Origin: a virus
Lineage: Duplodnaviria; Caudoviricetes
IMG/VR virus record: IMGVR_UViG_3300035497_000412
Length of the DNA: 64,000 bases
Reading direction: 5' to 3' (one strand)
Shown: positions 9,022 to 60,300 of the stretch, in pieces
How the letters are laid out: every line of letters starts with the position of its first letter
How positions within the stretch are numbered: the first letter of the stretch is position 1
Notes under the pieces: model-generated
Told to the model about the DNA's origin: nothing
The model's input: the letters and a program-made list of their open reading frames with translations, nothing else
Databases searched by the model: none
Position numbers and translations under genes: made by a program

Positions 9022-9169
9022 GAGCTAGTGGCGCAATGGTAGCGCAACGCACTTGTCATAATAGTATAAGAAATATAGTTCTTATTTATAAGAAAAGATA
9101 TAAGTCCAAATCTTATTTATGGCACCATTAATGCGTGGGTTGCGGGTTCAAATCCCGCCTAGCTCACCA
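9022..9169 (+). tRNA. tRNA-Lys(TTT) split by a 73-nt tRNA-like insertion (exons 9022-9054 and 9128-9169)
   Basis: Acceptor GAGCTAG/CTAGCTC+ACCA; anticodon stem ACGCA/TGCGT; joining the exons gives loop CTTTTAA. Confidence 0.8.
9055..9127 (+). ncRNA. degenerate tRNA-like element nested in the tRNA-Lys anticodon
   Basis: GTCATAA/TTATGGC acceptor stem + A + CCA; T arm ATAAG-TCCAAAT-CTTAT; AT-drifted D and anticodon arms. Confidence 0.75.
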
Positions 9170-9811: not shown

Positions 9812-9933
9812 AAAAGACGCAACCAGCAATTTATTTTTTTTAATGGAGTTATATGTCACAAGTTCGAGTCTTGTCAATCAGCGGGATTGTAGCTCAGAAG
9901 GTAGAGCAATAACATAAAAAATGTGTCTTGTTT
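9812..9933 (+). ncRNA. YrlA-like Y RNA with a circularly permuted tRNA module
   Basis: Closing helix AAGACGC/GTGTCTT plus CAGCAA; inside, T arm 9858-9874, loop-closed acceptor-like stem 9875-9889, D arm 9892-9907, all closed by GTTAT/ATAAC. Confidence 0.75.
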
Positions 9934-9938
9934 CATAT

Positions 9939-10013
9939 AGGGGTGTAGCATAAAGGCTAGTGCGGCAGGCTTTGACCCTGAAGATAAGTGTTCGATTCAC
10001 TTCATCCCTGCCA
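9939..10013 (+). tRNA. tRNA-Gln(TTG)
   Basis: CAGG-CTTTGAC-CCTG anticodon arm, T arm, GCCA end. Confidence 0.85.
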
Positions 10014-10806: not shown

Positions 10807-12198
10807 ATGAGTTTACAAATTTGGATGCCTCTTAATGGACATTTAAAAAATTTTGGATTAAGTAATGTAACTATAACCAACCATGGAGCAACGGCTAATA
10901 GCGATGGAAAAACTGGTTCATGTTACTATTTTGATGGAACCGACGATTATATAGAGATTTCCATCCCATCAACTATCACTTCTTTAAAGAACACTTCTTT
11001 AGCTATGTGGGTTAAAGGTAATTAGGCTTTTGGAGGTTTCTCCACTGATGGTACTGGAGTAGCTATTATGACCGCTTTTAATGCCAATTGGCATTTTTAT
11101 GCTTCTACTTGGGCCTATGTATCGGGTGGCAATATCGTAGATGGCGATTGGCATCATATAGCTTGCACGGTTGATGATGATACAATTACGACTTATCGCG
11201 ATGGTGTAAAAGTCGCAACTGCTTCAATCGCTTCTACTGGAATTTTAACTGATTTAACTTCTTCTAATTTTATTGAACTTGGTGCCGATCACCCAGGCGG
11301 TGATGAGTTTGGTACTGATTATATTAATGATTTTAGAGTATATGATCATTGTTTGTCTCCAAAAGAAGTGAAAGAACTTAGTAAAGGATTAATATTGCAT
11401 TACAAACTTGCGGACGCCGGCACTACTGAATATGATTGTTCTGGCTATATGCGTAATGGAACTAAATCTAGCGCTATTACTGCGAGTACCGACTCTCCTA
11501 GATATGATGGTTGCTGTGTTTTTGATGGGTCTAGTACATATATTGCCGCAGGTGAAGATGCAAAAGTTACAGATGAGATTTCAGTTTGCTGGTGGGGTTA
11601 TATGAGTGATTGGAGCGCATATCAAACTGCTATCAGTTGCACTGAAAATGCTGGTTGGAACTTTCAGCCATACAGTAATAATACTTTACTCTGTTGGATG
11701 GCGGGAACAGGTTCTTCTTCTAATACGTATAAACAAACCACTTACTCTCTTTCTAAATTGAGTTCTGGCTGGCATCATATCGTTGGCACTTATGATGGTT
11801 TACTTTTAAAATTATATGTAGATGGTGCTTTAGTTTCCTCTCTTACCGCTTATACGACAAAAACTCCGCTTTATTATAATTCTGCTAATGGCATTTTTGT
11901 CGGCAGCGAAGCTGGAAGTAATACGACAACACCAACAGGCCCTTATTTTAGTGGAAGCCTATCTGACTTCCGTATTTACGCTACAGCACTTTCCGCAGAT
12001 GATGTGGCAGAGTTATATCATACTTCTGCCATTGCGGATAATTCAGGAAATTTTTATGGTTATGAATTATCCGAAGGTGATAACTTAAATATTAGTAAAA
12101 CTGGTGTTATAAATGGTTCCGTCTTCCAAGAAGAAGATGGAAAGACAAAAATTGGTAGCGATGGAACTATTTATGCGAACATTTTTTATGAATATTAA
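10807..12198 (+). CDS. double LamG/ConA-like domain protein (TAG=Gln at 11023)
   Basis: FDGTDDYI, WHHIA/WHHIVGTYDG and INDFRVY/LSDFRIYATALS LamG repeats; the two track ORFs are in frame. Confidence 0.8.
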
Positions 12199-12266
12199 TT
12201 TGACTTTTTAAAAATTTTTTGATATAATATATATACAGTTAAGGAAGAAATTATTCTTCCTTACAT

Positions 12267-12340
12267 GGTCGATTAGTTTAATGGTAGAACAGGATACTTG
12301 TAATATTCAGGCGCGGGTCCGATTCCTGCATTGACCTCCA
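12267..12340 (+). tRNA. tRNA-Thr(TGT)
   Basis: GGATA-CTTGTAA-TATTC anticodon arm, TCCA end. Confidence 0.85.
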
Positions 12341-12385
12341 TGTGGTTACGTAATCTAAAAAATAAGAGAAAGAAGGCTTATACTA

Positions 12386-12739
12386 ATGGGCAATTATCCC
12401 ATCGACAAGTATAAATTTGTTGAAAGGACAACTAAGGAAGGAGTCCAGTAGGTTATAGCAATCTCTACATATGCGGGCAAGACAGTGAAAGGTGTCGCTA
12501 ATTGCGATCCAAGTGATAGATATTCATTTGAAGCAGGTAAAGCTCTAGCGGCGGCCCGCTGTGACTTAAAGGTTGCTACGAAGAGGGCTGCTCACGCAGA
12601 GCAGAGACGCCAAGAGGCACTTGAAGCATTAATTGTTGCGGAGAACGATGTTTCTCGTATGACAGATTATGTAAATGACGCTATTGTTGAAGCCGCGGTT
12701 GCGGAAGAGCGATTAAAGTCATTGATTGAAAAGTATTAA
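12386..12739 (+). CDS. hypothetical protein (one TAG=Gln)
   Basis: ATG 12386 is in frame through TAG to AISTYAGKTVKGVANCDPSD. Confidence 0.65.
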
Positions 12740-12785
12740 TAATTTTATAAGGGATAAGTATTACCTTATCCCTTATAAATCTTAT

Positions 12786-13099
12786 AGTGGCATGGTGTAA
12801 TGGTAGCACAGCGGTCTCTTGAAAATTGGACACCTAGCGTCGAAAGTGCTAGTGTGAATGGAGCCTAAAACGGGGAAACCCTAAGTGAATTTTTCATATG
12901 GCAATCCCGTGCTAAACTTCTACTTGTCAGTAGAAGAAATGTGTAGAGACTATATAGTTCCAATCTAACCCAAATTTTGGTATGATTAAGAGATAGTCCA
13001 GACCACAACAATTATTTTGGCTATGGAAACATAGTGTGGTAAGAAAACCGTATCCCCCTGAAGGAGTAAGTGAAAGTTCGAATCTTTCTGCCACTGCCA
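12786..13099 (+). tRNA. amber suppressor tRNA(CTA) with group I intron (exons 12786-12819 and 13044-13099)
   Basis: AGTGGCA/TGCCACT+GCCA; stem GCGGT/ACCGT; spliced loop CT-CTA-AA; long variable arm. Confidence 0.8.
12820..13043 (+). mobile_element. group I intron in the suppressor tRNA anticodon
   Basis: Core AAAACGGGGAAA, AATCCCGTG, GTAGAGACTA and AAGAGATAGTCC; follows U, ends in G; IGS ATTGGA pairs with TCT|AA. Confidence 0.9.
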
Positions 13100-13155
13100 G
13101 AAGTCTTCACGTTGGCGATGATGTTTTGACTAATTCTGTTAAAATAGATAGTTTT

Positions 13156-13183
13156 TGTCCTGAGTATGACATTAAACTGCTCA
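13156..13183 (+). ncRNA. H-type pseudoknot motif, copy 2 of 3
   Basis: TGTC-CTGAGTA-T-GACA-TTAAAC-TGCTCA. Confidence 0.6.
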
Positions 13184-13403
13184 TATTTATAAAAAGACTT
13201 GAAAAAAAAATAAAATTTGATTTTTCTTAAAATTTATAGTATAATATATATAGAAAGTGAGAGAGAGGATAAGATTTATATGAGAACTGTAGAATCTATT
13301 CAGAATAGAATTCATCTCCTTGAGAGTCGCGATCCGGTAACTAACGCAAATATTATTCGTAAGCTAAAGCGACAACTGAGAAAGCTTTCTTAATATAATA
13401 TTT

Positions 13404-13465
13404 AAAGGCGCAACCAGCAAATTTATTGTTATTTTATTAAGGGTTATAAATAACGCGCCTTGTTT
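13404..13465 (+). ncRNA. Y-RNA-like stem, copy 3
   Basis: AAGGCGC-AAC-CAGCAA...GCGCCTTG, with compensatory changes relative to the other copies. Confidence 0.6.
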
Positions 13466-13472
13466 TTTATAT

Positions 13473-13823
13473 GCCGCCGTGGTGGAATAGGTAGACACCA
13501 CAGACTTTTTGGAATACACAAGGACAACTTCATTAAAATCTTCCAAAAAAGTGTATTCTTAATAGAGCCATAAGATAGGAAACTTCTTATGGGATGTGCG
13601 CTAATTCGGCGAAACTCTCTTTGAGACAACGCCGAGCTAAGTTCAGATTTATCTGATAAATGTGTAGAGATCATATACGCACCTCCTAAGTCAGTATAAC
13701 TGATATGGAGAAGACATGATCCAGACTACAACGGTTTTGTCCAACCGGCTATGGCGACATAGAGTAGTAGGAAAATCTGTTATTGGAAACAATGTGCCGA
13801 TTCGAATTCGGCCGGCGGCACCA
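13473..13823 (+). tRNA. tRNA-Leu(TAA) with group I intron (exons 13473-13507 and 13772-13823)
   Basis: Stem ACAGA/TCTGT; spliced loop CT-TAA-AA; long variable arm; ACCA. Confidence 0.88.
13508..13771 (+). mobile_element. group I intron after U34 of tRNA-Leu(UAA)
   Basis: AATTCGGCGAAA, AACGCCGAG, GTAGAGATCA and GACATGATCC (P7); terminal G. Confidence 0.88.
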
Positions 13824-13869
13824 GCCCCTTGGGTCGGGGTATGAAAATAATACTTCACACAGTTACCTC

Positions 13870-13896
13870 TGTCCTGAGCATGACATTAAACTGCTC
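13870..13896 (+). ncRNA. H-type pseudoknot motif, copy 3 of 3
   Basis: TGTC-CTGAGCA-T-GACA-TTAAAC-TGCTC. Confidence 0.6.
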
Positions 13897-13942
13897 TTCG
13901 GGTTTATTAAATCCTGAACAAAGGAGCGTTACCTCTGTATAT

Positions 13943-14018
13943 GCGGTAGTAGTTCAATTGGTAGAGCACTTGCCTTCCAAGCAAGTTGTTGCGAGTTCAA
14001 GTCTCGTCTATCGCTCCA
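13943..14018 (+). tRNA. tRNA-Gly(TCC)
   Basis: CTTGC-CTTCCAA-GCAAG anticodon arm, TCCA end. Confidence 0.9.
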
Positions 14019-14046
14019 AATGAAAAAAAGAAAGGAGCCGTTTTTA

Positions 14047-14343
14047 ATGAGTAGATCCTATAAAAAGACTCCTCGGGCAGGAGATACTAAAAATAAGTTC
14101 TTGAAGCATTATGCTAATAAGCAGCTGCGAAAAAAAGATTTTGATACAGATTTATCCCATAATAACTATAAGAAGTTTTCTGAAAGCTGGAATATTTGCG
14201 ATTTCGAAGTCGTTGGAACTGATTTTAGTGACTATTGGAGAAACGTCGTACGCCAGTGGCATAGTTGGAAATATAGATATGATTCTTTCCCAGATAAAAA
14301 GCAAGCTTATAAAGAATGGTATAAGCATTTTAGGCGTAAGTGA
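14047..14343 (+). CDS. basic hypothetical protein (MSRSYKKTP N-terminus)
   Basis: AAGGAG RBS before ATG 14047. Confidence 0.55.
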   Translation: MSRSYKKTPRAGDTKNKFLKHYANKQLRKKDFDTDLSHNNYKKFSESWNICDFEVVGTDFSDYWRNVVRQWHSWKYRYDSFPDKKQAYKEWYKHFRRK

Positions 14344-14356
14344 GAAGGTCTGTTAA

Positions 14357-14569
14357 GTGGAAAATCAAGATAGTTGGTTAGCAACTTTAGCTAATCTTTG
14401 TTAGATTGCTTCATTTGATATGAATGTTACTGAAGTATCAAATGATGAAATTATGAAAAGACTTGAAAAATAGGATTTAGTTTTAGATCAATAGACTAAT
14501 GATTATTTAAAGAAAATAATCGAATAGAATGAGGAAATTTTAGAAATATTGCGGTCTTCCAGAAAATAA
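14357..14569 (+). CDS. small coiled-coil protein (4 TAG=Gln), absent from the ORF track
   Basis: 70-codon frame GTG...TAA that is open only when TAG is sense. Confidence 0.55.
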
Positions 14570-14859
14570 CCAATAAAAAGGAAAATTTTTGGAAGATCGC
14601 ATTTTTTTTGTAATTATTATATTATAGAAAATAAAATAGGAGTTATTACTATGACAATCAAGGAATTGATAGATGTGTTATCTAAAATGCCTCCAAATGT
14701 AGAGGTAGTTATTTTCAACGAAGATGGATTGCAAGACGAGTTTGATGTTGAGCTTTTTTATGGAGGAACTACTTGCATAATTACTCCTTATTCATATGAT
14801 TAATGGTTGCGGTTTTCCAGAAAAGAGTCAGTAAAAAGGAAATATTCTGGAAAACCGCA
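14549..14859. repeat. two related 53-nt hairpins (14549-14601, 14807-14859) flanking ORF 14651..14803
   Basis: TTGCGGTYTTCCAGAAAA...AAAAAGGAAA..TTYTGGAARAYCGCA occurs twice, each followed by a T-run. Confidence 0.7.
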
Positions 14860-14980
14860 GTTTTTTGATTTTTTTGTAAAATTATTATATAATATATATA
14901 GAAAAAGAGATATTGCAGCAATTTAATAATCAATTTACAGTCTTGCAAAAGACCAAGAGAAAAAGGAGATAATTATTATA

Positions 14981-16534
14981 ATGAATAGTTTTATTAATGG
15001 ATTGAAGAACGCTACTAATTTCACTTTTACGGAAAATCATGCAATCACACATAAAACCTCTAACTCTGATCTTCTGGATATGTTTGCTATGGGTGGCGCA
15101 TATAGAACCCGTTCTGATGAAGATTGTATTCTTCTTTTTAAGAACGCTCTTGAAGAAAATGAAGAGTATGCTATGAAGTGTTTGTTTTACCTCAGAGACG
15201 TTCGCGGAGGCCAGGGCGAACGCAGATTTTTCCGGGTATGTATGCGCTGGCTGGTCTCTGCGCGCCCTGAGACCGCTCGCCGCAATCTTCAGTATATTAG
15301 TGAGTATGGTAGATGGGATGATTTGATTTATATTTGCTATAAAACTCCTCTTTGGAAGGATTGCGTAGCTATTGTCAAGCATCAGCTGGCTTTGGATTGT
15401 GAAGATGTAATTATGAACAATGGCGCCGTGAGCCTGCTTGCAAAGTGGATGCCGAGTGAAAATACTTCTAGTGCCAAAACTAGAGAAGTAGCTTCTGCTC
15501 TGAGAAAGGGTCTTGGTATGACTTCTAAGCAGTACCGCAAGACTCTTTCTACCCTGCGTGAGCGTATCAATGTTCTTGAGCGTCTTATGTCCGCTGGAGA
15601 ATGGGATAAAATCGACTTTTCTAAGATTCCTTCTAAGGCTGGATTGAAGTATAAGAACGCTTTTGCAAAGCATGATCTTGACCGTATGGCTCTTGGAAAG
15701 CAGACTTATGAAGATTTTGCTAAAGATAAGAATACTACAGTAAATGCTGATACTCTTTATCCTTATGAAGTTGTTGCAGAAGTTATGAAGGTTTTTGGCG
15801 GCGTATATTCTCTTCGTTTTAATGCAGGCAAAGTTCCTTTGAATGACACTAATCGTTTGATGGTTAACAAATACTGGGACAATCTTTATGACTATTTCCA
15901 AGGGGCATCTTTGAATGCTATGGCGGTGGTTGATGTGTCTGGAAGTATGTTCGGTGATTGCGCTTCTGCCCCTCTCAATGTAGCTATTTCTCTTGGAATG
16001 TATTGCGCCGAGAAAGCAAAAGGTCCTTATGCTGGTCATTTTATGACTTTTAGTTCTAAGCCCGACTTCGTAAAAGTAGAAGGTGTTGATTTTTACGATA
16101 AGGTTGTTAGAATGACTAGAACTGATTGGGGTGGATCTACCAATATTGAAGCTTGTTTTGACTTGATGCTGAAGGTCGCTATTGATAATAATCTTTCTCA
16201 AGACGAAATTCCGGCAAGTTTGATTATTATCAGCGATATGGAATTTGACGACTGCGCTACTTCAAAAAGATGTAGACTCCGTCATGTCGGTGATACAGCC
16301 ACGTTGATGGAAATGATTGAAAAGAGATGGAATCAAGCTGGTTATAAAATGCCTTGCCTTACTTTCTGGAATGTTGATGCTCGTCACAACAATATTCCTA
16401 TGAAAGTTAAAGATGGCGTTCAGTTCGTTTCTGGTATGTCTCCTTCAATTTTCCAGATGGTGATGGAAAACAAGAATGCTTTCGATTTGATGTACTCTGT
16501 ACTTGATTCTGAAAGATATTCTGCAATTAAGTAA
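14981..16534 (+). CDS. DUF2828 (TROVE/Ro60-like) protein with vWA domain
   Basis: TEN, LRDVRGGQGER, EYGRWDDL, AKWMPSE, YRK, and vWA motifs DVSGSM and ISDMEFD. Confidence 0.8.
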   Translation: MNSFINGLKNATNFTFTENHAITHKTSNSDLLDMFAMGGAYRTRSDEDCILLFKNALEENEEYAMKCLFYLRDVRGGQGERRFFRVCMRWLVSARPETARRNLQYISEYGRWDDLIYICYKTPLWKDCVAIVKHQLALDCEDVIMNNGAVSLLAKWMPSENTSSAKTREVASALRKGLGMTSKQYRKTLSTLRERINVLERLMSAGEWDKIDFSKIPSKAGLKYKNAFAKHDLDRMALGKQTYEDFAKDKNTTVNADTLYPYEVVAEVMKVFGGVYSLRFNAGKVPLNDTNRLMVNKYWDNLYDYFQGASLNAMAVVDVSGSMFGDCASAPLNVAISLGMYCAEKAKGPYAGHFMTFSSKPDFVKVEGVDFYDKVVRMTRTDWGGSTNIEACFDLMLKVAIDNNLSQDEIPASLIIISDMEFDDCATSKRCRLRHVGDTATLMEMIEKRWNQAGYKMPCLTFWNVDARHNNIPMKVKDGVQFVSGMSPSIFQMVMENKNAFDLMYSVLDSERYSAIK

Positions 16535-16542
16535 AAAAAAAT

Positions 16543-16575
16543 AAGCCCGTTGAGTTAATTCTCAACGGGCTTTTA
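16543..16575. terminator. bidirectional intrinsic terminator
   Basis: AAGCCCGTTGAG-TTAATT-CTCAACGGGCTT between convergent genes. Confidence 0.85.
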
Positions 16576-16582
16576 ATTTTTA

Positions 16583-18109
16583 TTATGAAATAACTTTGTA
16601 TCTCAAATTTGTATAAGTAATAGTAACGGGGAAAGATCCACCATTTGAACTAAAACGAGAAGAAGAGTTAAATTGAATACCAGGATAAGTTGAACTCAAT
16701 CCTGCGGTTACACCACTTGTATTATCATAATTAGAACCATTATAGATACCAATATAGGTCTTAGCTGTATCTGTTAAAGTCTGACTATATGTCACTTCAT
16801 CAAAATATACCTTAACAGTTTCGCTACCAGTTAGACTTCCATCCGTAAAGAGGACGCCTTGAGACTTTGCAGTAAAGGTGATTGTTAAAGTATGAGTATC
16901 ATCATCAACAGTAAATGATTCACCACCGGCTTTTTCAGTATTGGTAGAAATCATGCTAGTAGTAACATATACGCTGTCATCAGTAGGAGTTTCAGTACCA
17001 GAATCCCCTCCGCTAGAAGTTTCAGTCTCAGGTTCTGTATATAATCTATATTGACCAATAGGGATATACTTTTTAGAATAGTCTGTATCTCCAGTGTCTT
17101 TAAAAACAATTGCTCTAATGTCAATATAATCTTCATATACATCAATTATAGCACCCTCAGACTCATTTGGCATACTCACTCGGGTTGAAGAAAGAGAAGA
17201 ATTACCAACACTTGAATCAATAGGATAAGCGCAAGAAGGTATATGAACGCACCAAGCAGAAGTTCTATTTACATTAGTGAGAGGCCAGACATTTGCTTTC
17301 TCCTCCCAATTTTGCAAATACCATTTCCAGTGACTATGACCATTAAACCATATAACTCTAGGGTAGGCGTCTCTTAATGCTTTTAATGACGTCAGCATGG
17401 TGCCGCTTAACCAGTTGCCGCTGGGGTAAATTTGCTAAAAATTTCCAGAAGCGTCTGGGAAAAACATATGCGTAATAACAAAACATCTATCATTTTTATA
17501 AGCTTCTAATTTATTTCCAAGCCAAGTGATATCAGCTGTGGCATATGTATTAGAACTAAATTCATATCTCTTCATTCCTAAAAATAGGAAATGATCAGTA
17601 ACATTATTGTGCGTTTTTGTAACTTCGTAAGAGTAAGTCGCGTCTGTAGACGTATATAAATCCGCAGTTCCAGTATACGTTTTCCAAGTAGCAATATCAA
17701 TATCGCTACTATTAGGACAATCATGATTACCGGTTGTAGGATAAACTGGAGTATTATTTGAAATTGCATTTAAGTTCTCTTGATATAAAGCTAATTCAGA
17801 ACTTAAATCGCCAGTGCTATAACTTGTTTGAGTGAGGTCGCCGCAAATTACTGTAAATTCTACATCTTCTTTTTCGTTGAAGAAAGTTAGAGCATTACGA
17901 ATGTCGTCCTGGTTTTCGTCAGCCTGACTTGTCTCATTATGGACGTCAGAAAGAACACCAAAACGATATAATCTTTCTCCAAAAGAGGGCTTAAATGAGC
18001 TGAGCGGGATCGCTCCAACTCGATTTCCATTTGAGTCATATACACCAATCTTTTTGGCAGCATATGGCGCAATATTTTGTTTATTAAAACCAGTGTAAGT
18101 ATTCGCCAT
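16583..18109 (-). CDS. calcineurin-like metallophosphoesterase with C-terminal beta domain (TAG=Gln at 17435-17437)
   Basis: SDVH, CGDL, GNHD, ITH and GHSH are split between two in-frame track ORFs. Confidence 0.8.
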
Positions 18110-18510
18110 TATGACACCTCCATAGTAGTGATTGGCTTCCAATCCTCTAGTTTTTCATTATTATCATCTTCGTAATACAAAGTGTAAGTTCCTGCATCTA
18201 GGTTTTCAAGAGTAATAACATTCTCAGAAGAGATATTACCAATATCTTTAGTATTTTGGAGATAAGATTGAAGATAAGCCTGAATGGCCTATTGGACAAA
18301 AGCAGTAGTAGCAATTTGCTCACTACTATCATCTGCGGCAGGTGTTGGAGCTTTTGGAGTTCCAGTTAAGGTGGGGCTATCTAAATCAGCCTTAGCCTCA
18401 TCAACTGCCTCAACGACTGCGGTTAGCTCATCTCCGGTTACGAAATTTCCAGAAATCTTATTCCATAATAAACCTAAACCAGTCTAATCTAAAAATTTCT
18501 TAATTTCCAA
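18109..18510 (-). CDS. tail-fibre-related protein (2 TAG=Gln), absent from the ORF track
   Basis: KKFLD*TG matches KKFLDQTG of the neighbouring gene; SPTLTGTPKAPT...QIATTAFV tail-fibre motif. Confidence 0.75.
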
Positions 18511-18575
18511 TATTTATACCTCCTAAATGGGAAAAAATAAAGGGGAAAATAATTCCCCTTTATTTAATACTCATA

Positions 18576-19256
18576 TTAGTTAGTGGCAGTTTGATCTGTA
18601 ACTGCATCAATTTCAGCGGAAGAAAGGGCAATAATGTTATTATAAACAGCTTCAGCGGAGCCAGCAGAATCGTAAGAGCCAGCAGCGACAGTATCCCAAT
18701 TAGAAATCTTCTCAGCAGTAATACCAAGGTCTTCAATAGCTTTGACTCGAGCGGCTAACGCAGTCAACTCAGAAGCCAGCGCATATTTGTCAACACCATC
18801 AGTTTGTAGAGCCGCAGTAATCTGTGCGGCAACACTAGTGCTACCAACTAAATCCTGTAAAGCTTCAATTGCGGTGCCATTGGCAGTGATATCACTACTC
18901 ATTTTAGCAGCGCCAGTGGTGTCACTGACAATCCAAGCAGCAATTTCGTTTAGAGTATCAATAGAACCGTTATTATTCTCATTAACGATTTCAGCAATTT
19001 GATAAGCCACAGAGCCTTCAGTGGTACTACCAGCATTTAACTTTGTAATTGCATTGGTGTTATCTTGAATTAACGCACGGACCGCAGTATCATCATATGT
19101 GCCCTTTTCCAGAGCATCAATTTTCCCCTCGGCCACAGTAACTCTTTCGTCAATAGCAGAAACAGTGGCGGTGTCAGCTTTATTACTCAGCTTAGACTGA
19201 ATCTTTTGCCATAAATAACCAGTACCGGTTTGGTCTAAAAACTTCTTAGTATCCAT
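18576..19256 (-). CDS. putative virion/tail-associated coiled-coil protein
   Basis: GSVAYQIA and DTLNEIAAWI motifs typical of fibre-associated proteins. Confidence 0.55.
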   Translation of the reverse strand: MDTKKFLDQTGTGYLWQKIQSKLSNKADTATVSAIDERVTVAEGKIDALEKGTYDDTAVRALIQDNTNAITKLNAGSTTEGSVAYQIAEIVNENNNGSIDTLNEIAAWIVSDTTGAAKMSSDITANGTAIEALQDLVGSTSVAAQITAALQTDGVDKYALASELTALAARVKAIEDLGITAEKISNWDTVAAGSYDSAGSAEAVYNNIIALSSAEIDAVTDQTATN

Positions 19257-19277
19257 TTAAATTATTTCCTCCTTAAA

Positions 19278-19763
19278 TTACTCAAATAATTTATCAATGT
19301 CATCTTCACTCATCGCCGCAATTTCACTCTTTTTAACATAATCAGTTAAATCGAAAGTGGCTCCAAGAGCATCCCAAGCAAGAGCATCATCTTCTGAGAT
19401 AATCGCCGCATAATTCATTCCATCAGACAGCACATTATATACGTCGCCATTTTTAACGTCTACTTCTGGAAGATCTTCATAAGTATCAACAGAACCTTTA
19501 TAACTATACACACTATTAATTGCGGCAGCCAGGTCATCTTGAGAAACAAGATTAGCTTTCTCAATAGCAGTAATGGTAGCATTAGTTACATCTGTGGCGG
19601 TTAAGAAAGAAGGTTTATTAGCGACACTTTCCCAATCAATTTCAGTAGTAACAAGTTTGCCATCTTTAATTTTTAGGCCATCGCCAAGGTTTGATTTGCT
19701 AATAAATAGCTCATCTAAGTTAGCTTTGAACCTAGCTAAGTTTGCATCTGAAACAAAAGCCAT
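19278..19763 (-). CDS. putative virion structural protein
   Basis: WESVANKP and YKGSV..Y.DLP...GDVYNV motifs. Confidence 0.55.
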   Translation of the reverse strand: MAFVSDANLARFKANLDELFISKSNLGDGLKIKDGKLVTTEIDWESVANKPSFLTATDVTNATITAIEKANLVSQDDLAAAINSVYSYKGSVDTYEDLPEVDVKNGDVYNVLSDGMNYAAIISEDDALAWDALGATFDLTDYVKKSEIAAMSEDDIDKLFE

Positions 19764-20128
19764 TATTCATTTTCCTCCTTTTCAAATAGGGTATCTACAT
19801 CAGAGTTTGTCATAGAAGTAATACCTATATCAGAAATATCTAAATCGCCTTTTAATTCGGCGCCATTGATAGTGGGAGTATCGGTTAATGTATCATAACT
19901 AATTGATGGAGTAGCTGTAACTCCAGTATCCTCTTCTCCAACATACCAATTACCATTTTCTCCGATATAAGGCTGTAAACTTTTAAGCCAAGTTTTTTCA
20001 TCTCCAACAAAGCCGTTATTCACAGCAATTTCATAGGCAGAGAGACCGGGATCGCCTTTAAGCACACCAGATTCCGATAGAGCGGCCTATATATTTTTTT
20101 TCATTAAAGCTAAAGTAATAATATCCAT
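19763..20128 (-). CDS. collagen-associated-type structural protein (TAG=Gln at codon 14)
   Basis: MDIITLAL N-terminus; SAYEIAV.NGF.G.E..WL.SL and PYIGENGNW motifs. Confidence 0.65.
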
Positions 20129-22352: not shown

Positions 22353-23648
22353 ATGGCTTATTTTGCATATGTAACTACTTTACAGAATCTGCGGCCACAT
22401 CCTAATGCTGATCGTCTTCAGTTAGGAGATTGCTTTGGTAATACTGTTTGCGTTAGCATGGAATATACTGAGGGGCAGATTGGAATTTATTTTCCGGTAG
22501 ATGGACAGTTGTCTGAGGAGTTTGCTGAAAAGAATAATTTGATTCGACACAAGGATGAAAATGGCAATAACATTGGTGGCTATATGTCGGATAAGCGCAA
22601 TGTTACTGCAATCAAGCTGCGAGGTCAGAAGTCCGATGGACTGTTTCTTCCGATTTCTTGCTTAGCATATGCTGGTAATACTTCCAAGTTGCAAATTGGC
22701 GATGCTATTAGTGTATTCAATGGGCATGAGATTTGTCAGAAGTATATTCCTAAGAAGAATTCTCGACAGAATGTTTCTGCTGGCAACCGCACCCGTAAGA
22801 AGAAGGTTCCTATGGCCCCTCTTTTTATTGAACACGTTGATACTGAACAGCTTGCTTATCATATGAGCGACTTCCAGCCTGGTGATGATGTAGAAATTAC
22901 TTTGAAGATGCACGGAAGTTCACAGCGAACTGGGCATTTGCCTGTTTTCAAGGGATATAAGCGTTCTTTCTGGGACAAGATTACCCATAAGGAAGGAACT
23001 CCTATTTATGACTGGGGTTATGTGACTGGAACTCGGCGTACTGTCCTTAATGAGGATTCTGAAGGATACTATGGTTCTAATGAATTTCGTAAGGTTCATA
23101 GCGATTTCCTAGAAGGTAAGCTTTGGAAAAATGAGGAAATCTTTTACGAAGTGGTTGGTTATATTGACGATAGAATTTCTATTATGCCTTCTGGAACCGT
23201 TCCTAATGAATATCGCCAACAATATGGAAAGATTATGGAATTCTCTTATGGTATGACTGCACCCAACTCTGATATGTATGTATATAGAATGACTATGACC
23301 TCCCCCGATGGAGAAATTGTTGAGTACTCTCCTGAGTTTATGCGTTATCGCTGTAAGCAGATTGGAGTAAAGTGCGTTCCCGTCTTATGGCGCGGACGTA
23401 TTCCAGAAGACATTGATATTCCTGCTGGTGAGTGGATTAAGAATATCGCTGAGCGGTATTATGATGGTCCTGATCCTATTGGTAAGACTCATGTGCGCGA
23501 AGGTGTCGTCTGCCGCATTGTGAATCGTCCGAAGTTTGCTGGTTACAAGCATAAGAATTGGCTGTTTAAGTACGTATCTGGTATTATTGTAGAAAAAATT
23601 GCTGATAGCGATGAAACTTATGATGCAGATATTCTTTCGGAGATGTAA
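22353..23648 (+). CDS. ATP-dependent RNA ligase (Rnl2/DRB0094-type) with N-terminal OB domain
   Basis: HPNADRL, KLRGQKSDG, motif I TLKMHGSS, REGVV, YKHKN. Confidence 0.8.
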   Translation: MAYFAYVTTLQNLRPHPNADRLQLGDCFGNTVCVSMEYTEGQIGIYFPVDGQLSEEFAEKNNLIRHKDENGNNIGGYMSDKRNVTAIKLRGQKSDGLFLPISCLAYAGNTSKLQIGDAISVFNGHEICQKYIPKKNSRQNVSAGNRTRKKKVPMAPLFIEHVDTEQLAYHMSDFQPGDDVEITLKMHGSSQRTGHLPVFKGYKRSFWDKITHKEGTPIYDWGYVTGTRRTVLNEDSEGYYGSNEFRKVHSDFLEGKLWKNEEIFYEVVGYIDDRISIMPSGTVPNEYRQQYGKIMEFSYGMTAPNSDMYVYRMTMTSPDGEIVEYSPEFMRYRCKQIGVKCVPVLWRGRIPEDIDIPAGEWIKNIAERYYDGPDPIGKTHVREGVVCRIVNRPKFAGYKHKNWLFKYVSGIIVEKIADSDETYDADILSEM

Positions 23649-24750
23649 TAATGAAAATGAAAATTGATAAAGCTAGTTTTGCTAATATGATAAAGGTTAT
23701 GGAAAAATACAAAGAGCAATCTGAGAACTTGTCTAAAATAGGTATTAGTGTTTGGAATCCTGTAATGAATAATTTAGAGGCTTATTATCTAATTACGTTA
23801 AAAGTTATTATGAACGACACAGGAGATTTAATTAGGTACTTTTGTTACACTTTGAATTTTGGTAAAAATTGGAAACCTGGTTGCTATCTTGGTAGAGGTG
23901 GAAAAGATATCTCTTTGAAGGATTCAAATGATTTATGGAATGCGCTAGTAGGAGAAAATGAATGAAGATGATTATTATTGCAGTAGTTGCTTTTATCGTT
24001 GGGTTTGGCTTTGGTGCTATGATTATGTCACTGATGGCAGTAAAGGAGGAAAATTAATGAACGAAAATAATAATAATAGTATTTTTGAAGTTCTTACGGA
24101 AGCACTTGCATCTGTTATTGCTGGAATTATTATTTTATTTGTTGACGCTGCACTTGCGACATGGCTTTGGAATCTTATTGTAGTTTTAGTGTTTCATGCC
24201 CCCGCACTCGTTTTTTGGCAGGCATTTGGCCTTATCGCTTTGGTAAGAATTATTTTAAATTTGGAGACTATTACGTTCAGTACAGATACAAATGAAGAAT
24301 AATAAAAAAATCAAGGATTCTAATAAAAAGAGAATCCTTGTTTTTTTTATAAAAATATGCTATAATATATATATAAAATAAAGGAGATGTTAAGTATGAA
24401 ATTTAAGCATCGAAAGAGTGCTCAGCGCAAGATTAACAAGGCAGTTAAGAATATGAATAAGAGCATTGCCGTTGACCCTCTGTGGAGAGGAAGATTTTGT
24501 GCCCATCAGACTTACTCAAGTTGGGAGAGTTTTACAGATGGCTCTGGTGGAATTCTAAATGTAAATATTGAGTTTAAGGATAAAAAGACTGGTTACACAA
24601 AGTTGTTTCTTTTTGATAGCTGCGGTAGAATTGAATGGTATCTTTTTCTTGCTATGAATGATTTCATTGTAACAGATTGTCACGATTCTACTTGGGGCGA
24701 TAGAGAGGCTATTTTAGCAGATACTACTGATTATACAAAGATTAATTAAT

Positions 24751-25443
24751 ATGATATATGTAACTTCAGATTGGCATGGTTATTTAGCTTTATATGACGA
24801 AGCTAAAAAAATATTATCTCCAGATGATACCGTGTATTTTTTAGGAGATATTATTGATAGAGGTCCAGAGCCTTGGAAAATTTTTAAAACCCTTTATAAA
24901 GACCCCCAATTTATTCTGCTTTGCGGTAATCATGAAGATATGCTTATTAAAGCTTTGAATAATCAATTAAAGTCTATAGAACTTCTCCGTCAAAATGGAG
25001 GATATGAAACTTATATGCAAGTTCTTCAAGAAAAAGACGTTGAAAAGTGGGTAAAGCGTTTACAGTCTTTACCATTAATGACATCTTTAAACAATGAAAA
25101 AGGACAAAATTTGATTTTATGTCATGCAGGGTATACTCCAAAAGAAGGCTTCATTCCCACCTCAGATGATTTGTTATGGAATCGAAATCATATTTACAAT
25201 AATTGGAGTGGTGATGATAATACCATTGTAATTCATGGACACACCCCCATTGCAAGTATGAATAAAAGATTTAAAAAAGCAAATGACTTTTATGAAACAG
25301 AAAGATTTACCACATTGCAAACTTCAGCAGTTTTATATTATTGTGACAAGCATAAAATCGATGTAGATATGGGCACAGTAAAAACTCATATGGCAGTTCT
25401 TCTAAATATAGACACTTTTGAAGAAATTATTTTAAAAATCTAA
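24751..25443 (+). CDS. Ser/Thr protein phosphatase-like metallophosphoesterase
   Basis: SDWHG, LGDIIDRG, GNHE, HAG, HGHTP. Confidence 0.85.
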   Translation: MIYVTSDWHGYLALYDEAKKILSPDDTVYFLGDIIDRGPEPWKIFKTLYKDPQFILLCGNHEDMLIKALNNQLKSIELLRQNGGYETYMQVLQEKDVEKWVKRLQSLPLMTSLNNEKGQNLILCHAGYTPKEGFIPTSDDLLWNRNHIYNNWSGDDNTIVIHGHTPIASMNKRFKKANDFYETERFTTLQTSAVLYYCDKHKIDVDMGTVKTHMAVLLNIDTFEEIILKI

Positions 25444-25725
25444 ATATAGAGTAGGTGGTTTATATGGCTAGGAAAAACATTGTTGAGCATGATTTTTATT
25501 GTCTGAATTGCGGCAAGCGCGCTTTGACTCTCCCGCGCAAGCAAGGACATCAGCATGAGAGATTTCATAGAAAAAAACTTTATTGCCCTTGGTGCCAAAT
25601 GAAAGTCAATGCGATTGAATGTAAAACTTGGGAAGATAGAATTGAATTTCAGGAAAATTTTGAAAAAGGAATTTATAAGGAAGAGGCTGCCGCAAGTATT
25701 GAGTATGCGCTAAATGAGAGGAAAT

Positions 25726-26199
25726 ATGATTAAAACGTCCAAGAATTTATATTTACTTTGCGGGATTCCAGGATCTGGGAAATCGACTTTTGTTAAGAAC
25801 GACCTTGCGCGTACTCATGGCAAATGGATTTCACGAGATGAGGTAAGATTCAGTATTGTTAATGATGATGAAGAATACTTTTCTCATGAGGATGAAGTTT
25901 TTAATACTTTTATCATTTGGATTAATGAAGCTCTTAATAATTATGATGATGTCTATGTAGATGCTACTCATTTAAATGAAAGAGCTAGAAATAAAGTTCT
26001 GAAGCGTCTTAACTTATTTGATGTAAATATTATTGCTGTCAACTTTAATGTAAATGTTAATATCTGTTTAGAACGTAATTCCAAGCGAGAAGGTAGAGCT
26101 TGCGTTCCTGAGAAGGCCATCCGCAATATGTATGCAAGTTGGCATCCTGCTAAAAAGGGAGAGCTATTTAATTATACAGAAATTATTAATATTGAGTAA
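25726..26199 (+). CDS. AAA_33 P-loop kinase (polynucleotide kinase-like)
   Basis: GIPGSGKST, ISRDEVR, DATHL, CLERNSKR. Confidence 0.8.
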   Translation: MIKTSKNLYLLCGIPGSGKSTFVKNDLARTHGKWISRDEVRFSIVNDDEEYFSHEDEVFNTFIIWINEALNNYDDVYVDATHLNERARNKVLKRLNLFDVNIIAVNFNVNVNICLERNSKREGRACVPEKAIRNMYASWHPAKKGELFNYTEIINIE

Positions 26200-57370: not shown

Positions 57371-60300
57371 ATGCTTGAAGTTATTAAACGAGATGGTTCT
57401 ACTGTCCTATTTGATAAAGAAAAAATTATAAACGCAATTAATAAAGCCTTTATCGAAGTGGATAATGAGCTATATGAAACAGATACCGCAGAAGATATTG
57501 CTTCAGAAATTGAAGTCGAAATTACTAAAAGCCCCATCAAGGTATCAGTTGAAACAATTCAAGACTGGATTGAAGAATCTTTAATGGAATCTGAGCGAAA
57601 AGATGTCGCTAGAGCTTATGTTAGATATAGATACAAGAAGGAAAAAGAGCGAGCTTTACAGGCCGATTTGGATTATCGTTTTAATAAATTTAGTGCTCTT
57701 ATCGCCGGAAAAGACGAAGAATCAAAAAAAGAGAATAGCAATAAAGACACTCGTATTATTCCTACGATGAGAGACTATATTGCAGGTTTTTCATGTAGAG
57801 ATATTGCTAAAAATTATTTTCCTAAAGAGATCTGGGAGGCTCATGAAAATGGGCTTATTCACATTCATGATACTGATTATAGTCCAGCAATGCCTATGTA
57901 TAATTGTAGTTTAATTAATCTTGAAGATATGCTACAAAATGGTACTGTAATTAGTAAGACTAAAATCGAAAAGCCTAAATCTTTTAGAACCGCCTGTACT
58001 GTTGCAACTCAAATTATTACACAAGTAGCATCATGTTAGTACGGCGGTAATACCATAAATCTTGCTCATTTGGCTCCGTTTGTTGATGTTTCTCGTCAAA
58101 AAATACATGAGCAAGTAAAACAAGAGCTTGAGTCTATTGTAACATATCCAAATGAAGTGATAGATAAAATCATTGAACAACGAGTTCTTGAAGAAATTAA
58201 AGATGGTATTCAGACTATTCAATATCAACTTATTACTATGAGCACAACTAATGGTCAAGCCCCATTTACTTCAATTTTTATGTGGATTGATCCTGATTAT
58301 GATGAAAATTTTCAACATGATTTAGCTTTAGTAATTGAAGAAGTTTTAAAGCAACGTATTGAAGGAGTAAAAAATGAACAAGGGGTTCCTGTTACTACAG
58401 CCTTTCCAAAGCTCCTTTATGTACTTGATGAAAATAATACTCATGAAAATAGTAAATATTGGTATCTCACTGAGCTTGCGGCTGAGTGTAGTGCCAAGCG
58501 TCTAGTACCAGATTATATTTCAGCAAAAAAAATGAGAGAACTTAAAAATGGAAATGTCTTTGGTTGCATGGGATGTAGATCATTCTTGCAAGATTATATA
58601 GATCCAGATACTGGAAAGCATAAATTTTGGGGTCGGTTGACTGCTTAAAGGTTAAGCCGACATTAAATTGCGTGAACTCATGACAAAGAGGTGTCTAACT
58701 TTTAGTTAGGCTAACGGTGAAAGCCGAAAGGACAATACCGTGCCAAGCCTTAAATAGGAAGGTGTAACGACTATGGGCGATGAATGTAACCCAGTAGAGC
58801 AGAGTTTGTCACTGTTCGAAGCGCGCAACTATTCTTAAATTGAGAATAGAAGAGATAGTCTAATTTTTGTTAACCAAGGCGTCTGCACATTAAATCTCGT
58901 GGATGTAGCACTTTCTTCTCAGGGCAATATGGAAAAGTTCTGGGAAATTCTAGATGAGCGTTTACAGATGTGTTATGATGTATTAATGATTCGTCATAAT
59001 GCTCTTAAAGGAACAAAATCTGATGTAGCGCCTATTCTGTGGCAACATGGTGCGATTGCGAGATTAAAGCCAGGAGAAACAATTGATTCTTTACTTTATA
59101 ATAATTATAGTTCTATTTCTCTTGGATACGCTGGGCTTTATGAATGTATTCATTACATGACTAATAGTTCTCAGTTAGAGCCAGAAGGCAAAGATTTTGG
59201 TTTAAAGGTCATGCAGACTCTTAAAAATGCTACCGATGAATGGGCAGCAAAAACCAATATAGGGTTTTCACTTTATGGTTCTCCTAAAATTAAAAACGTA
59301 GATTCTATGGGAGCTTATACAGTAATGTATAATGAAAAAACTGCTTAAAACGGGGAAGGATAAATTCTAATCCCGTGCTAAATTGCTATTATTCATAAAA
59401 AAAATAAAAAAGAGGTGAGAAAAACTGTCTATTTATTTAAAAGAATTGCCAAAAGATGCTAAAAAAATTAAAGGAACTTTAAATTGGTGCACACCAGATG
59501 GTATTATATATGGTCAAGATACTAGAATGGTACCAAATCGTTGGCGTCCAGATATGAAAACTCCAACAAAACATTATATGGAATATTTTAAAAATGCCAC
59601 CACAAAGAACCAAGGGTATATTTATGTTACTTTAAAATATATTAATCCTGATGGGACTTATACAAAAAAAACAAGGCGCGCGCATATCGTTATCGCAGAA
59701 ACTTTTCTTGATAATCCAAATAATTTGCCTGTTGTAGGACATAAAAATAATATAAAAACAGATAATAGATTAGAAAATCTTTATTGGACTACTTATCAAG
59801 AAAATACTAAAAAAGCAGTGGCAGATGGATTATTAGTAAACGATAAAGGTTATGATGATAGTCAATCTAAACCTGTTATTATGTATGACACTTACACTAA
59901 TAAAGAACTTGGAAGATATGGATCTATCTCAGAAGCTGCGAGAATTACTGGGTATTCTATAGCAACGATTGGACGTCAAGCTAAGTATAAACGTCCAGTG
60001 CGCAAACCCTGGTATTTTAGATATCAAGATGAATTTGAATAATAGCATAAATGTGTAGAGACTATCGAACGGTGATAAGCCTAGTAGAGTAGCGAAAGCG
60101 AAAGAGCAGTTTCCTTTGAGAAAAAGGATAAAAAGATAGTCCAAAACGATAAATGATAGAATCAACTACTTATAAATTTGCAGCTTGCTTAAAGAAGAAA
60201 TTTGGTATTATTCCTGGCGTAACTGATAAAAACTACATTACCAATAGTTACCATTAATTGATAGTGGCTTAATATAATAACATATTAAGAAAAACTTTGT

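Follow-up and report, generated by a model that had tools for sequence, protein, structure and literature searches.

Group I introns of class IC3 occur in transfer RNA (tRNA) genes such as tRNA-Leu(UAA) of cyanobacteria and plastids, Azoarcus tRNA-Ile(CAU), Agrobacterium tRNA-Arg(CCU) and cyanobacterial tRNA-fMet. Williams (2020) sorted the group I introns of bacterial tRNAs into 21 classes, in a text in which the words suppressor, phage, Gln and amber do not appear (bioRxiv 10.1101/2020.01.27.920355), and a 2014 review placed all phage group I introns then known in protein genes (PMC3984707). Suppressor tRNAs were found in about 40% of the phages that recode TAG, and non-canonical tRNAs were suspected (bioRxiv 10.1101/2021.08.26.457843). 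The tRNAs of Lak megaphages carry short introns described as "enigmatic" (bioRxiv 10.1101/356790). Here we analyse a stretch of 64,000 nucleotides (nt) of phage DNA, IMG/VR record IMGVR_UViG_3300035497_000412, referred to below as the window. Its positions 12786-13099 are a tRNA gene divided inside the anticodon by a group I intron. The gene is best interpreted as an amber suppressor tRNA(CUA) of a large gut phage that reads TAG, by our best estimate of the amino acid, as glutamine. We consider it highly probable that an intron free of any open reading frame (ORF) lies between nt 35 and 36 of this Gln-inserting suppressor as a tolerated mobile passenger.

The insert shares with IC3 tRNA introns a size of about 200-260 nt, the lack of an ORF, a P1 helix of three base pairs (bp) with a U.G pair, a terminal G ahead of the remaining loop bases, a tetraloop-receptor motif and a score above the cut-off of Rfam model RF00028; its sister intron in the window occupies the classical Leu 34/35 site. 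Unlike IC3 introns, it has as its host gene a phage stop-codon suppressor, tRNA(CUA), and lies at site 35/36. The tRNA itself resembles the suppressors of code 15 phages (crAss-like, Lak, Agate, other clades and phAss-1) in its CUA anticodon, its low-GC phage and its place within a tRNA cluster in a standard-code part of the genome, and here too TAG lies inside structural and lysis genes and is aligned with Gln. In contrast to those suppressors, the window gene is split by a ribozyme, so that the usual tRNA scans fail. Inserts in the anticodon loops of phage tRNAs are a trait in common with Lak, but the Lak inserts are short and not classed as group I, whereas the window suppressor holds a full group I ribozyme. 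A literature search of incomplete coverage found no description of an intron in a suppressor tRNA.

Exon 1 (12786-12819; the tRNA and intron features described here lie on the plus strand) comprises the 5' acceptor strand AGUGGCA (12786-12792), the D arm GUGU/GCAC (12795-12809), the 5' strand of the anticodon stem GCGGU (12811-12815) and loop nt 32-35, CUCU (12816-12819). Exon 2 (13044-13099) supplies loop nt 36-38, AAA (13044-13046), the 3' strand of the anticodon stem ACCGU (13047-13051), a long variable arm of 20 nt (13052-13071), the T arm GAAAG/CUUUC (13072-13088), the 3' acceptor strand UGCCACU (13089-13095), G73 (13096) and an encoded CCA (13097-13099). Both exons were delimited from ARAGORN with introns allowed, RNAfold of the joined exons and alignment with uninterrupted homologues, and exon 2 also from the sequence itself. 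Joining 12819 to 13044 gives a 90-nt molecule that ARAGORN calls tRNA(cta) and whose minimum-energy fold in RNAfold is an exact cloverleaf. The predicted spliced tRNA has the loop CUCUAAA, an A1-U72 pair, G73, the encoded CCA and the long variable arm.

When introns are allowed, ARAGORN finds the tRNA body at 12786-13099, sets the split by tRNA rules alone and labels the gene Leu(aag). This split point, and the one that gives Phe(gaa) for the neighbouring gene, were rejected because they disregard group I rules. Default ARAGORN and the Rfam tRNA model, run over the window, did not report the suppressor gene. A gathering-mode Rfam scan of the whole 64 kilobases (kb) missed both introns, but the suppressor intron passes the cut-off in a 1-kb stretch; the whole-window miss is a filter effect, relevant to pipelines. 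Since the default tRNA scans and the whole-window Rfam scan missed them, tRNA and ribozyme would both be overlooked by a routine pipeline. The window DNA, whose source samples include JGI 3300035498, matches JGI metagenome contig Ga0376451_0000032 (155,969 bp) exactly and is also present in runs SRR11792608 and SRR11792166; walking contigs upstream reached 42 kb beyond the window start. No second CUA tRNA, split or unsplit, is present in the window and these 42 kb, about 106 kb of genome. A megablast search of 12000-20000 against phage records gave no match, and IMG/VR contained no exact copy of the 3' exon.

The intron spans 12820-13043 (224 nt, ORF-less, IC3-like), an assignment drawn from RF00028, RNAalifold, pair counts and an alignment of relatives. 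In the short stretch searched, RF00028 matches 12809-13021 with 54.5 bits (E = 7.5e-13, cut-off 50). The core string AUGUGUAGAGANNAUAUA retrieved intron relatives at no fewer than 119 loci in IMG/VR, and alignment A1 was built from 12 phage tRNA introns of similar size, four from CUA tRNAs and eight from tRNA-Leu. Mapped through A1, the helices are P2 (12830-12855), P3 (12860-12864/12957-12961), P4 (12870-12875/12905-12910), P5 with a CCUAAG/UAUGG receptor motif (12880-12881/12900-12901), P6 (12918-12922/12931-12935), P7 (12948-12953/12993-12998), P8 (12962-12965/12984-12987) and P9 (13002-13006/13036-13040), with a further P9 hairpin closed by a GAAA loop (13021-13034). An unpaired AAG follows P9, its last base being the terminal G13043.

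RNAalifold on A1 recovers the anticodon stem, P2, P3, P4, P5, P6, P8 and three P9 helices. Once P7 is included as a pseudoknot, the 13 helices have standard pairs in 95.6% of cells, compared with 31-40% when partners are slid, and compensatory changes on both sides occur in 42 of 58 pairs, a count reached by none of 500 shuffles. P7, for instance, reads GACUAU/AUAGUC in the suppressor intron and GAUCAU/AUGAUC in both the L126 intron and that of the neighbouring tRNA-Leu. The insert combines the RF00028 score, a P3-P9 core with a covarying P3/P7 pseudoknot, a U.G pair at the splice site and a terminal G, all marks of group I introns, with the anticodon-loop site, 3-bp P1 and small size of IC3 tRNA introns. 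Its core strings AAUUCGGCGAAA... and GUGUAGAGACUA... may be close to those of the Azoarcus intron.

Four lines of evidence agree on the predicted splice junction, U12819|...G13043|A13044. We regard the uninterrupted homologues as the strongest. With the window's Ro-like protein (14981-16534) as query, 46 related phage loci were collected, many of which have an uninterrupted tRNA(CUA) in the same tRNA cluster, by the Ro-like gene. The uninterrupted genes of related phages show the same arm, GGUCUCUAAAACC, as the predicted join: that of L016 (AGCGGUCUCUAAAACCGU) is identical to it, those of L001 and L017 (CCGGUCUCUAAAACCGU) differ by one base, and all three have the long variable arm in common with the window gene. 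Loop geometry points to the same junction: with the stem GCGGU/ACCGU fixed, U at position -1 and a terminal G, CUCUAAA is the sole 7-nt loop. Other joins acceptable to ARAGORN were rejected, as they have shifted, mismatched stems and the terminal G would fall inside P9. At G13043 the intron ends ...GGUAAG, and the family 3' end ..GU(A/G)GUA(A/G)G|AAAA takes the form GUGGUAAG|AAAA in this gene.

The internal guide sequence UUGGA (12826-12830), identified from the sequence, the Rfam P1 alignment and A1, belongs to the region AUUGGA (12825-12830) just 5' of P2. In P1 its GGA pairs with U12817-C12818-U12819, with U12819.G12828 at the splice site, and in P10 its UU pairs with A13044-A13045 of exon 2. 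Across A1 the guide covaries with the exon, UUGGA accompanying UCU|AA in CUA tRNAs and UUGAG accompanying CUU|AA in tRNA-Leu; in either combination the splice site has its U.G, P1 a further two Watson-Crick pairs and P10 two pairs. The first-pass annotation had proposed these exon and intron boundaries and the guide AUUGGA pairing with TCT|AA. The letters hold on re-reading, and the pairing is borne out by the covariation across the family. Its statements that CUCUAAA is the only 7-nt loop under the U/G rules (true with the stem fixed), that the window has no other CTA tRNA (by ARAGORN with and without introns), that the 35/36 site differs from the 34/35 site of the neighbouring tRNA-Leu and that intron-unaware scans miss the gene proved equally sound.

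Many ordinary phage tRNAs are interrupted by the same intron family. Most of them are Leu(UAA), with the break after nt 34; the others include Arg(UCU), Ile(UAU) and a CAU tRNA. At least four further CUA tRNAs in IMG/VR are split after nt 35 (L135, L126 = L167, L079 and L078). At least one intron-split UCA (opal) tRNA was also seen there: at L092:6086-6399, on a 232-kb contig, a 290-nt member of this intron family interrupts the loop CUU|CAAA after nt 34. The junction pattern GTGRTAAGAAAACYGT was searched in IMG/VR and genome contigs; the matches listed were largely chance, and among them no group I core lay near new loci and no prophage or host was found.

In the window, the tRNA-Leu(UAA) gene (13473-13823, plus strand) starts 370 nt downstream of the suppressor, and a related group I intron of 264 nt (13508-13771) interrupts it after nt 34. 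On this intron RF00028 scores 28 bits over 13548-13744 in a short-stretch search. Its guide GAG (13565-13567) lies 3' of a 57-nt P1-loop insertion, and its P7 and P9 differ from those of the suppressor intron in a compensatory manner. Suppressor introns are 61-79% identical among themselves and 59-76% identical to Leu introns, and so form no clearly separate group. The target loops are similar, CUU|AAAA in Leu and CUCU|AAA in the suppressor, and the one-position shift with an altered guide is what would be expected from spread by reverse splicing or recombination. In our reading the family has spread among phage tRNA genes with similar loops (YU|AA), and the suppressor intron is no purpose-built regulator. 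Two further details of this neighbourhood were noted. The 57-nt insertion of the Leu intron allows two mutually exclusive pairings, GGAAUACAC/GUGUAUUCU and CUUUUUGGAA/UUCCAAAAAG, and a 27-nt repeat, UGUCCUGAG(U/C)AUGACAUUAAACUGCUC, is found at 13156-13182 and 13870-13896 (96% alike), about 50 nt 3' of each intron-split tRNA.

TAG is a sense codon in this phage. The window is a large phage's replication region (with topoisomerase II, NAD ligase, RecJ, polymerase and RNA ligase, the last with large Bacillus phages as best cultured relatives at about 45-47% identity), and the late region lies upstream, with gene calls that include the SPbeta-type families YonD, YonG, YonB and YomW. Treating TAG as sense lifts the ORF cover of the late region from 0.43 to 0.72, compared with 0.47 for TGA. 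Single Pfam domain matches cross a TAG in NrdD (58037) and in the metallophosphoesterase (17437, minus strand), and a portal profile match in the late region crosses two. In the SH3-NlpC/P60 lysin (20864), the PIN-PhoH protein (28142) and a LamG-type protein, TAG is flanked by domains of one protein; in-frame UAG codons are found in other late genes as well. At 11023-11025 (plus strand) a TAG that this tRNA would read falls between the called ORFs 10807-11025 and 11068-12198; together, in a single frame, they make up a gene (10807-12198) for a lectin-like protein of 463 amino acids.

The residue at TAG is best read as Gln, on the evidence of aligned homologues. The NrdD TAG is aligned with the Q of (S/H)QYGG in PDB entries 9d3x and 1h78, and the column of portal residue 378 has Q in 84, K in 24 and R in 12 of 120 homologues. 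Over eight TAG columns Q is enriched 4.5-fold and has the best likelihood, K coming second. Alignment with Gln and a coding density restored by TAG as sense are together the signature of code 15. Hardly any homologues of the TAG-containing window proteins turned up by tblastn in the 46 related loci, and PDB contained no relatives of the phosphoesterase or the PIN-PhoH protein.

The variable arm also points towards Gln. A hairpin at 13053-13065 (plus strand), supported by RNAfold and by comparison with phage tRNA(CUA) genes and tRNA-Gln loops, has a 3-bp stem UCC/GGA (13053-13055/13063-13065) and a 7-nt loop, CCCUGAA (13056-13062), similar to the anticodon loop of tRNA-Gln(CUG). We chose 75 distinct phage tRNA(CUA) genes by anticodon arm alone (loci L411-L526), 30 of them with long variable regions. 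In 20 of these 30 the arm carries a C(U/C)(C/U)UGA(A/C) loop on covarying stems, most often CUCUGAA or CUUUGAA. The tRNA-Gln(CUG/UUG) genes that the phages themselves carry have these same anticodon loops. An attractive reading is that the variable arm may offer charging enzymes a copy of the Gln anticodon, which the CUA anticodon lacks. That these genes represent a widespread, undescribed suppressor class, combining a Gln anticodon-loop copy in the arm with a mobile group I intron in several lineages, we put forward as a tentative and rather doubtful suggestion.

According to the proposed scheme, the precursor would fold, the UUGGA guide would pair with exon UCU, with U.G at the splice site, and with the AA of exon 2, and guanosine-initiated self-splicing would join U12819 to A13044. 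The product would be a 90-nt tRNA with anticodon CUA and a long variable arm, which host enzymes would charge, most likely with glutamine, allowing the in-frame UAG codons of portal, NrdD, lysin and other genes to be read. The analysis shows the anatomy of the gene, a covarying intron fold, splice sites placed through homology and a sense role for TAG with alignment to Gln; actual splicing, Gln charging and the lack of regulation are what we infer here.

RNA data came from Logan contigs of four animal-gut metatranscriptomes that contain 90-95% relatives. One contig (X1) carries exon 1, intron and exon 2 in unspliced form, and a 95%-alike relative (X1 record 2) retains the same split gene. In two studies (X3 and X4) a 261-nt contig from a 90-95% relative has an end that runs back into its start, which implies a 231-nt circular or tandem form with the whole intron and a junction no more than 5 nt from the predicted ends. 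The path of these contigs runs from 13044, through one extra U and then back to 12817, so that the 231-nt form equals the intron plus A36 and UCU(33-35). A similar joined form of 214 nt ends at the terminal G (13771) of a Leu-type intron. These joined contigs fit excised circular introns, short of proof of splicing.

Several observations weigh against the proposed scheme. The exon holds two overlapping UCU triplets, and the alternative register GUCU/GGAC is steadier as a bare duplex (-2.1 kcal/mol, compared with +0.6 kcal/mol for UCU/GGA). No contig in the four metatranscriptomes joins 12819 to 13044, an absence that is uninformative either way because mature tRNAs are seldom assembled, and DNA was possibly present in those RNA libraries. 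Between G13043 and U12820 the 231-nt form has five extra letters (A, U and UCU), for which a plain full-length intron circle fails to account; cleavage and religation of the anticodon loop could, as could an artefact of reverse transcription. Some 50-60 kb of the genome is unseen and may hold another suppressor. Support for Gln is statistical, from nine sites, with K second best and several TAG columns variable; the 20-nt variable region is unusual for tRNA-Gln, and the anticodon arm resembles that of E. coli tRNA-Trp. One way to read part of this list is a dead tRNA, with an intron that is inactive or spliced elsewhere (after U12817, before U13040) and suppression supplied by the host or an unseen gene; the steadier register, the other split points proposed by ARAGORN and the lack of ligated-exon RNA among the contigs examined would suit it. 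We find this scarcely credible, given two intact exons that form a cloverleaf with an encoded CCA, core helices all retained with compensatory changes, TAG in essential genes and a close relative with the same split gene; other split points, moreover, lead to 5-nt loops or mismatched stems, with the terminal G inside P9. Splicing after U12817, at the UCU two bases upstream that the first-pass annotation had also named, was rejected for its 5-nt loop and because two homologues are unable to form that pairing: the alternative register (after nt 33) is impossible in L079 and L078 because their nt 31 is A or G, and both retain the UCU(33-35)/GGA pairing. It is also improbable that the spliced tRNA reads UAG but inserts Trp, Lys, or one of Ser, Leu and Tyr. 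A body with A1-U72, G73 and an anticodon arm like that of E. coli tRNA-Trp makes Trp a candidate, G73 suits the identity of Ser, Trp and Gln tRNAs alike, long variable regions (20 nt here) are typical of bacterial Ser, Leu and Tyr tRNAs, and K ranks second among the fits at TAG columns. Yet Q dominates the conserved columns, NrdD QYGG and portal alike, S, L, Y and W are rare at TAG columns, the D arm belongs to the short-arm class, A1-U72 and G73 recur in the tRNA-Gln(UUG) that the phage itself encodes (9939-10013), and the variable-arm loop copies a Gln anticodon loop. The Ser, Leu or Tyr identity raised by the long variable arm was accordingly rejected on the aligned TAG columns.

The first-pass annotation had gone further and suggested that splicing could act as a timer for the code switch. 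Under such a scheme slow or regulated self-splicing, controlled for example by guanosine triphosphate or a phage protein, would delay the suppressor and so time the TAG-containing late and lysis genes. In its favour, about 106 kb of sequence has no CUA tRNA but this one, TAG codons cluster in the late region, a lysin gene has a TAG in frame, the intron is kept at 35/36 in at least five phage lineages, and recoding has been proposed to time late genes (bioRxiv 10.1101/2021.08.26.457843). However, related phages have the homologous suppressor without an intron, and the same family splits the downstream tRNA-Leu(UAA) and many other phage tRNAs in which no code switch is at stake. TAG also occurs in nrdD and in the phosphoesterase and PIN-PhoH genes of the replication region, the intron has no extra domain or ORF for sensing, and suppressor introns are not clearly separate from Leu introns. 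The sequence has no sign of regulated splicing. The timer is thus unsupported, and we give it little probability. The intron is better viewed as a tolerated mobile element, because homologous suppressors are intron-free and TAG is not restricted to late genes. Of the related claim that the TAG=Gln code rests on splicing, one part stands, in that TAG is needed as sense and Gln is the best estimate; the dependence itself is trivial, as for any interrupted gene, and assumes besides that no suppressor is supplied from the unseen sequence or the host.

Surveys of recoded phages detect a suppressor in far fewer than half of them, which leaves a gap in how the code change is explained. Intron-split suppressors, unseen by default finders, are a concrete and checkable part of this gap, and if the class is real, mobile introns would explain part of the "missing suppressor" problem. 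For annotation, an intron-permitting scan is advisable before a phage suppressor is declared absent. Phage tRNA genes commonly carry the classical tRNA-type group I introns known from bacteria and plastids, and so provide natural examples of a guide changing with a new target loop, as spread by reverse splicing predicts. If the Gln-loop reading of the variable arm is true, the arm would present to the host's glutamine-charging enzymes the anticodon that they require, while CUA reads UAG, and a functional copy would be a new way to set the amino-acid identity of a suppressor.

Other genes of this phage may be interrupted as well. The frame of nrdD (57371-58648) ends after about 270 of 562 profile positions, so that the remainder must be downstream, probably beyond one or more introns. 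Some 28-30 kb before the window start, terminase-like sequence is joined in frame to HNH/NUMOD1 endonuclease ORFs (L174:2909-5535), and the heavy fragmentation of gene calls there fits several introns in the terminase gene.

Within the window's tRNA genes, a tRNA body at 9022-9169, called Thr(UGU) by ARAGORN with Lys(UUU) possible, has a 73-nt AT-rich insert, below group I size, which resembles the insert, itself tRNA-like, of the Lak tRNA-Thr(UGU) (bioRxiv 10.1101/356790). At 9836-9924 in the tRNA cluster there is a weak match to the Y-RNA-like YrlA (39 bits, against a cut-off of 69), 5 kb from the Ro/TROVE-like protein at 14981-16534 (DUF2828; PHROG "RNA-binding protein"). Finally, a candidate RNA repair cassette at 22353-26199 contains an RNA ligase (22353-23648), a metallophosphoesterase (24751-25443) and an AAA_33 kinase-like protein (25714-26199), and could mend tRNAs cut by host anticodon nucleases.

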